Below are positions 1,964 to 45,763 of a DNA stretch of 64,000 nucleotides, piece by piece (the first letter of the stretch is position 1; each line of letters begins with the position of its first letter). Location of the stretch: positions 1 to 64,000 of IMG/VR virus record IMGVR_UViG_3300029849_000006, one strand, 5' to 3'. This DNA is from a virus. Taxonomy: Duplodnaviria > Heunggongvirae > Uroviricota > Caudoviricetes. Both the position numbers and the translations under genes were made by a program. The notes beneath the pieces are model-generated. The model did no database searches, was not told the origin of the DNA, and was given only the letters and a program-made list of their open reading frames with translations.

Positions 1964-2278
1964 ATGTTTACAAAAGAAGAGCGATTATTCATATGGAAAA
2001 AGGTATATGAGATGATTGATAGGCAAGAGGATGGGGAATACATATGTGTTGCGTTAAGAAATGTAGTGTTTATGTATTTCAAAAAACATAAAAATATCTA
2101 TGGGTTTCGTTCAGACGAAATGGTGAGAATATATTTCCCGGAATTGGAGGAGAAGATAAGTATGGCCACAGAACCAGAGGAAACAAGAACGTTTTATGGG
2201 TGGTTTGGTTGCATTAGTCCAGAAACGAAGGAGGTAAGGCTGAATATTGTGAAAGATATTATAAAAGAGTTAGAATAG
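1964..2278 (+). CDS. hypothetical protein (104 aa)
   Basis: ORF track; tight spacing in the + strand block. Confidence 0.45.
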   Translation: MFTKEERLFIWKKVYEMIDRQEDGEYICVALRNVVFMYFKKHKNIYGFRSDEMVRIYFPELEEKISMATEPEETRTFYGWFGCISPETKEVRLNIVKDIIKELE

Positions 2279-2876: not shown

Positions 2877-3168
2877 GAATGATATTATAAAGGCGTCAGC
2901 GATAAGCACAGACGACGACAGAGGTTTGTTGTTGTGTTCAATAACAGATTCAGGCTTTACGTCTATAGCGAGCGTGATATCGGCTGTTAAAGACAAGTTA
3001 CCAAACAAAGATCATAAGAAGATGGTGTTTGAAATCTTGAATGATACGAAAAAGAGTACGGACGATATAACAATTGTGGGACAAAAGTATTGTAATAAAG
3101 AGCAGAAAACAATATGTTTATGTAATGTTAGTTTTTTTATTTTTATTGAAAAGAGCGCCGGCCTGTGA
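2863..3168 (+). CDS. hypothetical protein (101 aa)
   Basis: ORF track. Confidence 0.35.
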   Translation: MRIYRNDIIKASAISTDDDRGLLLCSITDSGFTSIASVISAVKDKLPNKDHKKMVFEILNDTKKSTDDITIVGQKYCNKEQKTICLCNVSFFIFIEKSAGL

Positions 3169-41822: not shown

Positions 41823-42146
41823 TTATATGTAATGCATGTACCCATCTCGGTGTATAAACCTTCCCGATTCAAAGCGCTCAATATCTTCAGGGCAAATAGA
41901 GCCCGAATCCTCTCTCCTGGCTTCAAACCAAAGCCCCGGCTTACGAATTAGGCAAGTTATGATATAATTGAAGCAATTGTGCGTAAAATGGAAAACAGAT
42001 CCTACAGGGAAATACCTATCAGCTTGAAATACGATTCTTTTTCGTTTAGTATCAAACGTGATATCTCCTACTATCTTAGCCACGTAATAGCTTCTGCCAT
42101 TTAACGTTTCATCTGTTTGTGGTATCCAATAATAACCTCTTGCCAT
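41823..42146 (-). CDS. hypothetical protein (start moved to MARGYYW to avoid the terminator hairpin)
   Basis: ORF track 41823..42176; the first 10 codons overlap the terminator at 42160-42189. Confidence 0.4.
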   Translation of the reverse strand: MARGYYWIPQTDETLNGRSYYVAKIVGDITFDTKRKRIVFQADRYFPVGSVFHFTHNCFNYIITCLIRKPGLWFEARREDSGSICPEDIERFESGRFIHRDGYMHYI

Positions 42147-42159
42147 GCCACAAATATAT

Positions 42160-42189
42160 AAAAAAAAATCGGACAAGATATATGTCCGA
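42160..42189 (-). terminator. rho-independent terminator: TCGGAC-ATATATCTT-GTCCGA then U8
   Basis: On +: A8 at 42161-42168, then TCGGACAAGATATATGTCCGA at 42169-42189. Confidence 0.6.
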
Positions 42190-42196
42190 CTTTATA

Positions 42197-42367
42197 TTAC
42201 TTTGATTCGTTTTCAAACCGCTTTATAATAGAAGCAATATCATCACCACAAATAAACATCATTCGACGTTCTTCTTTTGGTTTATGAGACACTGGAATGG
42301 TTTTGTTTATCTTAATCTGATTCGCCAGACCTCTACCTAAACGAATATCAACTTTTTTACCTTTCAT
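42197..42367 (-). CDS. small protein (56 aa; MKGKKVDIRLGRGLANQIKINKTIPVSHKPKEERRMMFICGDDIASIIKRFENESK)
   Basis: Hand-translated; not in the ORF track (under 60 aa). Its ATGA start overlaps the stop of the upstream gene; followed directly by a strong terminator. Confidence 0.35.
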   Translation of the reverse strand: MKGKKVDIRLGRGLANQIKINKTIPVSHKPKEERRMMFICGDDIASIIKRFENESK

Positions 42368-42674
42368 GAATTATTTGTTTAAACAGACCAATTCCATCTA
42401 TTATAATATGACCGCTTTGCATACGACCATTATTAGGATTGTGTAGAAAATTGAAACCACTTTCTTTTTCCTGTCTTTCAAAAGAACTGATATCCTTTCC
42501 TCTACGGGCTCTTTCAAAAGCTTTCTTGAACAACTTGCCTCTAAAGGTCTTGACGAGGATCTTGGTAGCGTTATTGCCGACTCTTACCATTGCTTTCCTT
42601 GCCTGGTCCTCCGAGACAAAACTGCTTCGGAAAATATACGATGCTGCTGCTTGTATGTCCTGCTTGGTAATCAT
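42357..42674 (-). CDS. hypothetical protein (105 aa)
   Basis: ORF track. Confidence 0.4.
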   Translation of the reverse strand: MITKQDIQAAASYIFRSSFVSEDQARKAMVRVGNNATKILVKTFRGKLFKKAFERARRGKDISSFERQEKESGFNFLHNPNNGRMQSGHIIIDGIGLFKQIIHER

Positions 42675-42747
42675 ATGATAAACATTTCTTTCAGAATACT
42701 GATCTTTATTCCGTATATCAATTTCATCTCATCTCTATCATATACGT

Positions 42748-42778
42748 CAAAAAAGGATTCACTGGGGTCCTTTGAATC
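42748..42778 (-). terminator. hairpin GATTC-ACTGGGGTCCTTT-GAATC then U6 on the - strand
   Basis: Read directly about 50 nt downstream of the TnpB-like stop. Confidence 0.4.
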
Positions 42779-42825
42779 TGCGCTCAATTAAATTATGCAA
42801 TTACCAGTTTGACATACTCCCATCG

Positions 42826-43626
42826 CTAAAGCAAATGGGATTCTTGGATACAAGCGCAAGAAACCACGACATTACTATCACTGGAATTACTCTTGCTCTC
42901 CAATTCGGAAATGCCCTTCCGAAGTATATTACGGGCTGCAAGAACATCACGGTCGTTTACCGCTCCGCACGCCGGGCATACCCACGTGCGGTCGCGTAAC
43001 GACAATCCTTTATTAATGCAGCCACATTCACAAGTTTTGGAAGAAGGATACCATTTGTCAATCTTATGTACTATCACTCCATACTTTGAAGCAACATACG
43101 TAAGTTTATCAATAAAAGAAGAATGACTAAGATCAGAAACTTTCTTTCCCCACAAACGTTTCATTCCTTCAATGTTTAGATCTTCAATAAAAATATAATC
43201 ATATTGTTTACACAAATCATGAGCTAATTTCCATTGAAAATCCGATCGAAGATTGTTTATTTTACGATACGTTTGTTGGAGTTCAAACAGTCTCCTTCTT
43301 CTATTGTTAGATCCTTTCTTTGCATTAGAAAGCCGTTTGTTTAGTTTTCTAATCTTGTTTTGATATTGTTTGAAGAATAATGGAGACCCAATTTTGTTCC
43401 CATCACTTTTAGTTAGATAAGTTTTCAGGCCAAAATCCAATCCTATAGATGCACCATCCCCTCCTGTACATCCACAAATCAAACAATACGAGTCTCTTTC
43501 TGTCTTCGATTTGGATTGAAAATCTCTTACGGCTTTAATCCAGATAGGAGAAATAATCTTACCGGAAAATACAGGTACATCTAAGATTAATGTTTCCATT
43601 ATTTTGGCAAAATATTCATATAACAC
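42826..43626 (-). CDS. tnpB: TnpB-like RuvC/Zn-finger nuclease domain protein, N-terminally truncated (266 aa)
   Basis: RuvC-I IGLDFGLKTY, RuvC-II IFIEDLNIEG, Zn-finger KTCECGC...WVCPACG and RuvC-III NDRDVLAARNI in the translation. Only ~50 aa precede RuvC-I and an in-frame stop lies 8 codons upstream of the GTG start, so the WED/REC region is missing. Confidence 0.6.
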   Translation of the reverse strand: MLYEYFAKIMETLILDVPVFSGKIISPIWIKAVRDFQSKSKTERDSYCLICGCTGGDGASIGLDFGLKTYLTKSDGNKIGSPLFFKQYQNKIRKLNKRLSNAKKGSNNRRRRLFELQQTYRKINNLRSDFQWKLAHDLCKQYDYIFIEDLNIEGMKRLWGKKVSDLSHSSFIDKLTYVASKYGVIVHKIDKWYPSSKTCECGCINKGLSLRDRTWVCPACGAVNDRDVLAARNILRKGISELESKSNSSDSNVVVSCACIQESHLL

Positions 43627-43814
43627 GGCACATCTACCACATCTCTTCTACGAAGTCCCTTATCAAAATAGGAAACCATATAAGTGTTTTTACCTTCGTG
43701 ATCAGGTCTGGGATCAAAACATTCAAAAACGAATCTTGTTATACCTTCCAAATGACCAAGCATGAAAACAAATTCGCCACTGTATCTTTTATTAGCCAAT
43801 TCTTCTACAGTCAT
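43599..43814 (-). CDS. hypothetical protein (71 aa)
   Basis: ORF track; overlaps the TnpB-like 5' end by 28 nt in another frame. Confidence 0.3.
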   Translation of the reverse strand: MTVEELANKRYSGEFVFMLGHLEGITRFVFECFDPRPDHEGKNTYMVSYFDKGLRRRDVVDVPCYMNILPK

Positions 43815-44038
43815 AATCTGTCCCCTCCTAATCCTGAATTGATGCTAACGTACTTAACACGGACATCATTTCCACGTCCAAGCTGACCCCAGCCGGGCGA
43901 TGGCGTTCCCTTAGCCGGAGCAGGGACAGCCCTAAGCCGAGGCCAGTCCTGATTTTGCCTCATGGCTTCAGCCTCTTTGTAATACCGGTTACACAGTTCT
44001 TGATCTTCGTAACCAACGTAATCTTCCTTATTTTCCAT
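43811..44038 (-). CDS. hypothetical protein (75 aa)
   Basis: ORF track; ATGA overlap with the downstream gene. Confidence 0.35.
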   Translation of the reverse strand: MENKEDYVGYEDQELCNRYYKEAEAMRQNQDWPRLRAVPAPAKGTPSPGWGQLGRGNDVRVKYVSINSGLGGDRL

Positions 44039-44107
44039 ATAGAATACTTTTTCAACAAAAGTACGACATTCATGAATTAATTAGATTTAAAATAAAACAA
44101 TATGAAT

Positions 44108-44143
44108 TAAAATAAAAACCCGATACGTTAAAATCGCATCGGG
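44108..44143 (-). terminator. hairpin CCCGAT-GCGATTTTAACGT-ATCGGG then TTTTTATT on the - strand
   Basis: Read directly; lies 24 nt downstream of the small gene 44167..44343. Confidence 0.5.
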
Positions 44144-44166
44144 CCTGGTATTGAAAAAAAATAGGT

Positions 44167-44343
44167 TCAGATCTTGGGTAAAGATTCGAGCCAATTTTTA
44201 ACATCTTTATATTTAGGGTCTTTGTCTATTCTATCTTTCAGTTCATGCAATGCTGAGTCCATAACCGTATTCGGTACGCCAATCAACTCTCCTATTAAAT
44301 ACAATGGGGTTTTATTCGATTTAGATTCGTGTGCTATATTCAT
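44167..44343 (-). CDS. small protein (58 aa; MNIAHESKSNKTPLYLIGELIGVPNTVMDSALHELKDRIDKDPKYKDVKNWLESLPKI)
   Basis: Hand-translated; protein-like composition; its own terminator lies downstream. Preferred over the antisense + ORF 44174..44407. Confidence 0.4.
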   Translation of the reverse strand: MNIAHESKSNKTPLYLIGELIGVPNTVMDSALHELKDRIDKDPKYKDVKNWLESLPKI

Positions 44344-44484
44344 GTCAAAAAAAAGTTATGTGAAACAAACCGGCCACGGGTATTCTATTGCCCGCCGACC
44401 GGTATAATATTTTTATTCCTTTTTTCCAAACGGGAAAAACGGGAATGCGGGAATCATATTTTTTACTATGGCTCCCGCACCACC

Positions 44485-44536
44485 GGAAGGACCTGGGTCT
44501 GGATCTCAGGTCAGATCCTTCCAGTTTATTTTTTCG
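44485..44536 (+). terminator. strong + strand intrinsic terminator (GGAAGGA...TCCTTCC imperfect hairpin, then TTTATTTTTT) inside the - strand block
   Basis: Read directly. No convincing + strand protein gene lies upstream. On the - strand the same hairpin is not followed by a U-tract. Confidence 0.5.
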
Positions 44537-44799
44537 CCGAGGTAATCTTGCACGGCAAGCCATCTTATAAAGGCTACTCCTTCGGGAGCATCCGGATCAT
44601 CCAAATACATTAACGTAGCTTTCACCAACTCGTTCTCACATTTGAAGACCTTCGGAAAACCATCCGAATAGTACATTGCAAAGACATATTGGACATCGCC
44701 CCATGTCGCTTTATCCGGCTTCTTCGCTCCGCACTTTTCAAAAATATCTTTTATTTCCGGCTGCTTCCAGATCCTCTTGGATCCATCGACGTTGACCAT
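44506..44799 (-). CDS. hypothetical protein (97 aa); in frame with the upstream RG/ER-rich ORF across a single TGA
   Basis: ORF track. Hand translation shows ...GRGRGRSY*GADAEDPAYQKYVDTYGYHFSNALADEAVKKMVNVDGSKRIW... Confidence 0.45.
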   Translation of the reverse strand: MVNVDGSKRIWKQPEIKDIFEKCGAKKPDKATWGDVQYVFAMYYSDGFPKVFKCENELVKATLMYLDDPDAPEGVAFIRWLAVQDYLGEKINWKDLT

Positions 44800-44892
44800 C
44801 TTCTTTACCGCCTCATCAGCGAGAGCATTAGAAAAATGGTAGCCGTAAGTATCTACATATTTCTGATAAGCTGGATCCTCTGCGTCTGCTCC

Positions 44893-45261
44893 TCAATAAG
44901 AACGACCTCTGCCACGTCCGCGACCTCTACGCATCTGAGGTCCGTCACCGTAGTATCTGTCGTCTCCATAGTAATCGGTCGGGTAGGATTCGTAACCCAT
45001 CCTCCGGTATTCCCGGTCCTCCATTTCATGACGACGTTCGCGCTCTTCAAGCCTTCTTTCCCTTTCTTCCAGCTCGTTTTCGCGTTCTTCCATTTCCTTC
45101 ATCTTCTCATGCATACCGTAATGGTCGTAAATACCACCACCGTACCCCATGTACGTCCCATCAGAACGCCGGCTTCTGCCTCTGCCTCCACCTCGTCTGT
45201 CTTCTATCTCGTCATATCCAGGATATTCTCTGTGTCCTGAATTTAAATCATATACTATCAT
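44893..45261 (-). CDS. low-complexity Arg/Gly- and Glu/Arg-rich protein (122 aa)
   Basis: ORF track; tightly follows 45269..45763; RGG-like repeats and an ER-repeat helix. Confidence 0.4.
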   Translation of the reverse strand: MIVYDLNSGHREYPGYDEIEDRRGGGRGRSRRSDGTYMGYGGGIYDHYGMHEKMKEMEERENELEERERRLEERERRHEMEDREYRRMGYESYPTDYYGDDRYYGDGPQMRRGRGRGRGRSY

Positions 45262-45268
45262 ATTATAC

Positions 45269-45763
45269 TTATTTCAAACGTTCTACAATTAACTTCTTTA
45301 AATCTTCGAATGAATCAGTAAGGTCATTCACCTTATTTTCTATACCAGCTATTTTACGATCCTGCTCTCTCGTTTGTTTGAATGCCGGATTGATGTCTTC
45401 TAATATAGATTCACAAGCCTCTATCTTGGCACGATGGGCATCTACGCTGTTTATTATGTCTTGACTGGTGTTTTTTATAGCATTCAGTTCGTTCATAATC
45501 GGATCTATGCTGGTAGATAATGTTATGCCCATAGCCTTAGCCACATTCTGGGATTCCGGGACCGTATAGGTCTTGGTTTCGCCAGTGAGCTCTACCGTCA
45601 GATCCACCACGCGGGTCTGCATCGCCTGATACTGACCTGGCTGAGGAGGAAGATACCTGGGTTCGGATACGGCTACTACCTTTCCCAATTCGTATTTAGG
45701 TACTGTATTAGTATCAAGGGTATGTACCTGAAACCCTTTCTTCAAATCTGAAAACATGATCAA
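45269..45763 (-). CDS. hypothetical protein (164 aa)
   Basis: ORF track. Confidence 0.5.
   Translation of the reverse strand: MIMFSDLKKGFQVHTLDTNTVPKYELGKVVAVSEPRYLPPQPGQYQAMQTRVVDLTVELTGETKTYTVPESQNVAKAMGITLSTSIDPIMNELNAIKNTSQDIINSVDAHRAKIEACESILEDINPAFKQTREQDRKIAGIENKVNDLTDSFEDLKKLIVERLK

Follow-up and report, generated by a model that had tools for sequence, protein, structure and literature searches.

A TnpB fragment fused to a phage gene: a probable decaying deletion derivative of an IS200/IS605-family insertion in a phage genome

Introduction

The closest described relatives of the locus reported here are the IS200/IS605 elements of the IS608/ISDra2 type, including the tnpB-only "IS1341-group", and a TnpB fragment within an IS200/IS605 remnant is a kind of feature that is already known. 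In IS608, the right-end terminus is TCAA and the target is TTAC. Among derivatives of TnpB, the TldRs retain the N-terminal half, which binds RNA and DNA; their RuvC catalytic residues and C-terminus are lost, and they are conserved beside specific host genes. They are TnpB-like nuclease-dead repressors (PMC10705468). In TnpB itself, binding of the TAM and of the guide-target duplex falls to the WED and REC domains, which also bind much of the RNA scaffold, and all the TAM contacts of ISDra2 TnpB (Y52, S56, K76, F77, Q80, T123 and N124) precede residue 187; the roles of its RuvC triad and zinc-finger residues are used here as given in the same source (PMC13639567).

The locus lies in the window, that is, the whole 64,000-nucleotide stretch that was analysed (positions 1 to 64,000 of IMG/VR record IMGVR_UViG_3300029849_000006, a Caudoviricetes virus), and the element family to which it belongs resembles IS200/IS605 in several respects. 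Members of this family encode a TnpB with the RuvC triad and zinc finger, have at either end a subterminal, imperfect hairpin that contains a bulged T, insert directly 3′ of a 4-nt motif (TTAT, or TTAC in the L002/L006 subgroup, of which MT839900.1 and L006 are representatives), contain a structured RNA that overlaps the 3′ end of tnpB, and finish at the right end in TCAA, as IS608 does; a 132-aa Y1 tnpA persists beside the frameshifted tnpB of the related copy in MT839900.1. Unlike the described elements, the family as found here resides in phage genomes, and the copy in the window is a 3′ half only, with no left end, tnpA, or WED and REC domains. Derivatives of 114 bp and ~205 bp in related phages (L037, L064 and L004) are PATE/MITE-like and reflect the same decay process, whereas the window copy lacks the left end and retains half of tnpB, and is therefore not a mobilisable miniature element. 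With the TldRs it shares a TnpB derivative shorter than its ancestor; the pattern of loss, however, is reversed, the N-terminal half being gone and the triad intact, and it is found in one strain rather than conserved. As the triad is intact and the opposite half is missing, the open reading frame (ORF) is not a TldR, and as no adjacent CRISPR array is present (no repeat array was found in 42000-44500), it is not a Cas12f or other type V effector.

The chimeric ORF

The ORF on the minus strand at 42826..43626 (266 aa from a GTG start) was confirmed; begun at the ATG at 43599, which shares bases with the stop of the upstream gene (TAATG) within a minus-strand late operon, its product has 257 aa. 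A preliminary description had reported three RuvC motifs, a zinc finger of the TnpB type and the absence of the WED/REC half, and on each of these points the profiles and the alignment with ISDra2 TnpB agree with it. The Pfam models OrfB_IS605 (5e-19) and Cas12f1-like_TNB (1.5e-20) both exceeded the gathering score, and the zinc-finger/TNB domain PF07282, inserted in RuvC, is whole (1.5e-20, model positions 1-60 of 60). The NCBIfam model guided_TnpB matched at 1.1e-53 with 182.9 bits (cut-off 100) over model positions 195-389 of 389, and the full-length model IS200_TnpB reached 158 bits, below its cut-off of 425. The TnpB match is confined to ORF residues 58-239. Comparison with ISDra2 TnpB (PDB 8bf8, 8exa and 8h1j) showed that residues 187-373 of the 408 in 8bf8 align with the ORF (E 6e-27), that D64, E148 and D227 of the ORF fall residue by residue on D191, E278 and D361, and that the zinc-finger cysteines are conserved as CxC...CxxC at 42967-43032; the counterpart of residues 1-186, in contrast, is replaced in the ORF by 47-56 unrelated residues. 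The WED and REC domains are thus absent, the matches beginning at guided_TnpB position 195 and ISDra2 residue 187.

With the full-length family member P0002 as the tblastn query, the window covers residues 170-379 at 95% identity, and no N-terminal TnpB half was found anywhere in the 64-kb window. As described before, no tnpA was found in the 64-kb window either. The tnpB fragment is free of stops and frameshifts, and the few substitutions that distinguish it either are synonymous or fall within the tail that overlaps the RNA module.

An in-frame TAG at 43648-43650, 8 codons above the GTG, also stands as previously noted. Recoding of this stop (TAG as an amino acid), which would lengthen the ORF upstream, was considered and rejected, since a conserved 71-aa gene and the start of gene Y itself, a native phage gene treated below, occupy this position; the 2140-aa and 2238-aa ORFs, which are intact under the standard code, also count against TAG recoding. 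A frameshift that would join the ORF to 43599-43814 had been suggested and did not hold, because the latter is the conserved 71-aa gene, unchanged in element-free relatives, with no Pfam match and no tblastn match to full-length TnpB. The approximately 50 residues preceding RuvC-I are indeed present; the N-terminus of the ORF consists of gene Y residues and is therefore not TnpB sequence. On these alignments, the ORF is a chimera in which 47 gene Y codons (56 from the GTG) run in frame into those for TnpB residues 170-379. The coordinates of the features are collected in Table 1.

Table 1. Features of the chimeric locus in the window
Feature	Position	Strand	Comment
Conserved 71-aa phage gene upstream	43599..43814	-	csAssE-Sib counterpart WOZ57314.1
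Chimeric ORF	42826..43599	-	gene Y N-terminus and TnpB residues 170-379; 257 aa from ATG, 266 aa from GTG at 43626
Gene Y, first 47 codons	43459..43599	-	native phage gene; deletion cut after ...CLICGCTGG
RuvC triad and zinc finger	42946..43437	-	D 43435-43437, E 43183-43185, D 42946-42948; cysteines 42967-43032 in between
Element remnant	42809..43458	-	650 of ~1243 bp: tnpB codons 170-379, stop and right end
Omega-RNA-like structured module	42809..42935	-	spans last ~35 tnpB codons, stop and right end
Subterminal right-end hairpin	42819..42839	-	CCCATTTGC-TTTA-GCGATGGG; one bulged T; stop TAG in loop
Terminal TCAA of right end	42809..42812	-	element boundary between 42809 and 42808
Flank expected as the guide of a read-through omega RNA	42789..42808	-	ACTGGTAATTGCATAATTTA; after TTTAT (TAM TTAT) in element-free relatives
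Remnant of disrupted 116-aa gene, 134-bp 3′ part	42675..42808	-	homologue of WOZ57318.1; premature TAA 42788-42790

Gene Y and the left junction

A 26-mer taken from the window-specific DNA nearest the upstream gene occurs in 26 contigs of IMG/VR (29-154 kb, the majority 80-154 kb), and in all 26 the similarity to the window ends at exactly 43459/43458. Because these relatives carry the same DNA up to exactly 43459, the segment 43459-43599 is the start of native gene Y, which in the relatives encodes a 67-aa Cys-rich protein. Past the breakpoint (marked here and below by a slash), nine relatives printed base by base read ...ACAGGAGGG/TGTAACTTGTGC (GGAGGG/TGTAACTTGTGC) and the window reads ...ACAGGAGGG/GATGGTGCATC, where GATGGTGCATC is tnpB codon 170. 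The 117 bp between 43575 and the tnpB part were at one point taken for foreign "filler"; this was rejected, as they are native gene Y and occur in the 26 relatives. The phage csAssE-Sib carries a different allele of this hypervariable island.

Downstream of gene Y, intact relatives have genes for products of 243 aa (DUF2829), 91 aa, 101 aa and 116 aa. In the window strain, the left end of the element, tnpB codons 1-169 and ~1.3 kb of phage genes are all missing, and tnpB codon 170 is joined straight to gene Y codon 47 with zero microhomology. An inverted second element in gene Y was considered as the cause of the deletion, and the junction that it predicts was not found in IMG/VR.

The insertion site and the right end

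More than 100 contigs (~150 kb) of related gut phages served for comparison. Among GenBank phages the nearest is csAssE-Sib (OR575929.1; 151 kb; from human gut), which matches the window at 95-97% identity to either side of the locus, lacks window positions 42809-43575 and has in their place 1599 bp encoding most of four small genes. Its similarity to the window restarts at 42808, and the element boundary at 42809 lies 17 nt past the tnpB stop. Comparison with insertion-free relatives, named in the preliminary description as a way of defining the boundaries, thus placed the right end at 42809/42808 and gave the empty site as TTTAT/ACTGGTAATTGC; in L001, L007, L009, L029 and L032 this site reads AAGGTTTAT/ACTGGTAATTGC.

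The right end ...GGGAGTATGTCAA is common to five independent copies with unrelated flanks beyond it, and the consensus of independent copies is ...CCCAT(T/C)(T/C)GCTTTAGCGATGGGAGTATGTCAA. In the window, the right-end junction is intact (...CCCATTTGCTTTAGCGATGGGAGTATGTCAA/ACTGG) and no target duplication is visible. Approximately 30 distinct left-end flanks define the TAM as TTAT and the left-end start as GATTATTTAACC, the element starting GATTATTTAACCAA... directly after (N)TTAT, and full-length relatives at the same site as the window copy keep this left end, preceded by TTTAT. Of the IS605-type ends anticipated for the locus, therefore, the subterminal hairpin of the right end was found, whereas the left-end motif was not found in the window at up to 3 mismatches.

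Same-site relatives and the element family

A search of IMG/VR for the junction of right end and flank returned ten loci. A full element with a 379-aa tnpB occupies the same junction in L034, L035 and L038 (1242-1243 bp) and in L041 (1138 bp). The same insertion with other deletions is seen in L039, where tnpB starts at residue 102, in L040, where it starts at residue 206, and in L036, where it starts at residue 346 and joins the 101-aa gene through an AATAT microhomology. L037 holds a 114-bp mini-element that is an internal deletion of the same insertion, and only right-end stubs are left in L033 (45 bp) and L023 (33 bp). Preservation of the right end at all ten loci was rejected as a biological signal and attributed to ascertainment, because the loci were found through that very junction and preserve it by construction.

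Full-length members of the family have 379 aa (360 aa from an internal Met) and are at most 96% identical to the window fragment. Among the 120 best listed of 1069 homologue matches, most are on contigs of 80-160 kb. At least 45 distinct insertion sites were counted from different right-end flanks, most phage copies are tnpB-only, and the genomes of close relatives often hold one to three full-length copies at other sites. Recurrent homologues of 227 aa might have represented a conserved short form; this was rejected, as they are frameshifted full-length genes, and the remaining short homologues have differing internal or 5′ deletions. Judging from the copies compared, decay is common in this element family. 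No account of csAssE-type phages or of the element was found in the literature searched, and the family, which is abundant in this prevalent group of gut phages, appears to be undescribed.

The RNA module

The terminal 127 nt of the element adopt a predicted compact multi-helix fold (MFE -41.3 kcal/mol, z = -3.6). In an alignment of 20 diverse copies, 92% of the cells pair and 13 base pairs show compensatory changes, a number of covarying pairs that was reached in 0 of 500 shuffles and is far above all slid controls. The best-supported helices are the right-end hairpin, in which L002, L003 and other copies show compensatory changes, and an inner hairpin. An Rfam search of the module gave no relevant match to a known omega-RNA family. 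As the element ends 17 nt past the stop, the guide-RNA scaffold would lie within the 3′ coding region and not downstream of it. The earlier placement of an omega RNA in the 50-150 nt downstream of the ORF was accordingly abandoned, the element ending at 42809 and the module overlapping the last ~35 codons; the terminator hairpin reported within 42680-42825 likewise found no support, since the terminator scan made no call in the region 42675..42808 and the sequence belongs to what is left, at the 3′ end, of the disrupted 116-aa gene.

Miniature derivatives of the family keep just the RNA module and right end together with the left-end hairpin, at ~205 bp (L064 and others) or 114 bp (L037), and Parabacteroides phage PF672P1 has two miniature copies. 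Three substitutions in the RNA module separate the window from the eight long copies compared, which are full-length or nearly so, with pairing kept or improved. These substitutions are shared with L037 and P0003 and are therefore not private to the window strain; L037 has all three, so it and the window copy derive from the same allele. The use of 42789..42808 as a guide would follow from the published mechanism of IS200/IS605 elements.

Distribution of the chimera

The exact 257-aa product is on record in seven contigs. Three of these (Logan ERR912142, ENA ERZ27256547 and JGI 3300045988) were compared with the window and match it at 100% identity over 13.4 kb; the Logan contig does so over 6.8 kb around the ORF as well. 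Scans of IMG/VR and JGI metagenomes did not return the gene Y/tnpB junction, and the N-terminal 56 residues are covered by none of the 1069 homologue matches. This distribution fits a young allele of one strain rather than a conserved protein. No full-length tnpB was found in the window or in the 9.4 kb past its right end, which together cover all but ~60 kb of the genome.

Origin and possible function of the locus

The locus is best explained, with a probability that we put at about 0.88, as a decaying deletion derivative of an ordinary copy of a tnpB-only IS200/IS605-family insertion, and not as a new miniature nuclease. Decay of an IS200/IS605-like insertion was one of the two origins offered in the preliminary description, and the exact right-end junction, the empty sites, the full-length copies at the same site and the deletion series all speak for it. 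An IS200/IS605-family element would have inserted after TTTAT in an ancestor, with its right end abutting ACTGGTAATTGC, and one illegitimate deletion, running from gene Y codon 47 to tnpB codon 169, would then have produced the fusion; this order of events is the one that we infer. Independent deletions of the same insertion in sister lineages would be the most economical history. Several observations count against this explanation: the triad and zinc finger are intact in an in-frame fusion, the RNA module is fully intact, and the left junction, besides having no microhomology, lies 1 nt from an opposite-strand TTAC site used by a related element in MT839900.1.

The chimera is probably translated from the start codon of gene Y, because the ATG of that gene was inherited. 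As WED and REC are absent, the ORF fails as a functional TnpB and would be incapable of RNA-guided cleavage; going by the published structure and function of TnpB, TAM recognition and holding of the guide-target duplex would be impossible. The remnant likewise fails as a mobile element: lacking a left end, and with no tnpA found in the window, it would be unable to transpose. The lack of inactivating point mutations would be explained by a recent deletion. The chimera most likely does nothing useful.

The second origin offered earlier, a miniaturised RuvC protein retained for another role, would make the fusion of gene Y to the RuvC and zinc-finger part a product maintained by selection, such as a nuclease that works independently of a guide, or a regulator. 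The in-frame fusion, the whole catalytic triad and zinc finger, and the absence of stops and frameshifts are what such retention would leave; an intact triad and zinc finger in an in-frame fusion are expected under retained function as well as under recent decay, and a deletion falls in frame by chance in 1 of 3 cases. However, the architecture is limited to one strain, no diverged copy was found, in sister lineages the same site holds the full-length gene, other truncations of it or an erased form, and all the TAM contacts and part of the RNA-binding surface are gone (PMC13639567), which together make this origin very improbable. Still harder to credit is an assembly artefact, with the gene Y/tnpB junction created by mis-joined reads of two variants of the phage: this locus is hypervariable in relatives that occur together, and such conditions can give rise to chimeric assemblies, but three pipelines (Logan, ENA and JGI) give an identical sequence over 13.4 kb.

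The intact RNA module, backed by covariation, is the point from which another account starts, namely that a full-length TnpB from another copy, in the same phage or in the host, loads the RNA module transcribed with the late operon. One to three full-length copies are often present elsewhere in close relatives, and miniatures with only a left end, RNA module and right end recur; such loading in trans is nevertheless unlikely, as neither the 64-kb window nor the 9.4 kb past its right end contains a full-length tnpB. The further step, in which the complex would cut the intact 116-aa-gene allele of co-infecting relatives (TTAT then ACTGGTAATTGCATAATT) and so bring about homing or exclusion, is equally doubtful, although the first 18 nt of the guide match the empty alleles after the TTAT TAM. 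In some relatives 33-45 bp are all that is left of the same copy, which shows the RNA module to be dispensable, and a guide acting in trans would leave the protein fragment unexplained. Were this account true, a "dead" transposon copy would be a guide for homing or exclusion of phage against phage.

Taken as a decaying deletion derivative, the remnant alone matters little; it does provide a well-documented case of TnpB decay, with empty, full-length and several deletion forms at one site. The wider comparison reveals high activity of an IS200/IS605 element with the TAM TTAT in a group of ~150-kb human-gut phages that is itself highly prevalent; because recombination occurs between co-infecting phages, TnpB-driven homing could naturally be studied in this group. 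The family also offers a compact TnpB of 379 aa and an RNA scaffold of ~120 nt, the ends of which are now defined.

Insertion site in the 116-aa gene

In all same-site carriers (L034, L035, L037, L038 and L041), the flank at the element's left end is ATGGGATTTAT, corresponding to positions 1-11 of the disrupted 116-aa phage gene, whereas the right-end flank begins at gene position 214 and is preceded by AAGGTTTAT. The 202 bp lying between two TTTAT target motifs are therefore absent, a loss that could have arisen from a pair of insertions that then recombined, or through a transposase-linked deletion. The window retains a counterpart of this locus as a remnant of the gene. In L008, L013, L014, L018, L021 and L027 the 116-aa gene is present as a second allele, which at the equivalent of window position 42808 reads GGTCTAT/CTTTACAATTG rather than GGTTTAT/ACTGGTAATTG and differs in the TAM as well as in the first bases that match the guide. 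This allele could represent escape from TnpB targeting or mere divergence.

Deletion junction in gene Y

The deletion junction that joins gene Y, the native Cys-rich phage gene, to tnpB in the window (43458/43459) is 1 nt away from an opposite-strand AGTTAC/ACCCTCC site of gene Y. MT839900.1 carries an element with both tnpA and tnpB at the homologous TTTTTAC/ACCCTCC (locus L002, about 3001-3003), within a gene-Y-like domain, and no element inserted at the AGTTAC/ACCCTCC site of gene Y was found in IMG/VR. The proximity of the junction to this site may be a coincidence, or may be the vestige of a second element copy.

Genomic surroundings of the chimera

The island of small genes amid large structural genes (window 42200-45300, compared across L007-L032) is hypervariable, with relatives being 95-99% identical elsewhere. 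It contains insertions of about 1.3-2.2 kb at window 44210 and 44040-44063, together with several differing deletions. The terminator-like hairpin upstream of the small-gene cluster suggests that this cluster, including the gene Y-tnpB chimera, begins its own, separate transcription unit. The 122-aa low-complexity ORF gave no family match and is conserved in csAssE-Sib, the closest GenBank phage, as WOZ57309.1.

Features of the window, its strain and compared loci
Feature	Location	Strand	Remarks
116-aa-gene remnant	window 42675-42808		counterpart of same-site carriers' flank
Terminator-like hairpin	window 44116-44146	-	strong; 12-bp stem, 6 GC pairs, T tail
122-aa ORF	window 44893-45261	-	very low complexity; RGG/RGRGRGR runs and ERERR repeats
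544-aa gene	L160 3028-4662		window's strain; weak TROVE (Ro60-like RNA-binding) Pfam match
Second, distinct TnpB (449 aa)	L005 7321-8670		directly after 379-aa TnpB, beside 2287-aa structural gene
Early-region mobile genes of relatives	L166 17899-18810; L167 16143-17054; L167 3764-4990
Miniature elements	L064, L071, L076, L098, L104, L107, L114; L046, L051, L057, L081; L004 (two copies); L037

Miniature elements and other mobile genes

Many related phages, as well as Parabacteroides phage PF672P1, repeatedly carry miniature elements at fixed sites. These measure 114 to ~205 bp and consist of a left-end hairpin, an RNA module and a right end, each element having its own flank sequence. At least 12 contigs have the L005 site, whose guide is AGAGGATCTAATATCTTGAA, occupied; the equivalent interval of the window's strain, beyond the right end of the window, holds no tnpB. 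The 544-aa gene with the weak TROVE match is located about 5-7 kb past that end, flanked by a giant structural gene on one side and a lysozyme-domain gene on the other. The early region of relatives harbors further mobile genes, comprising an IS1595-type DDE transposase together with genes that resemble RRXRR/HNH homing endonucleases. In the collection, 1126 blocks list the 104-aa protein encoded at window 1964-2278, indicating that this phage group is very prevalent.
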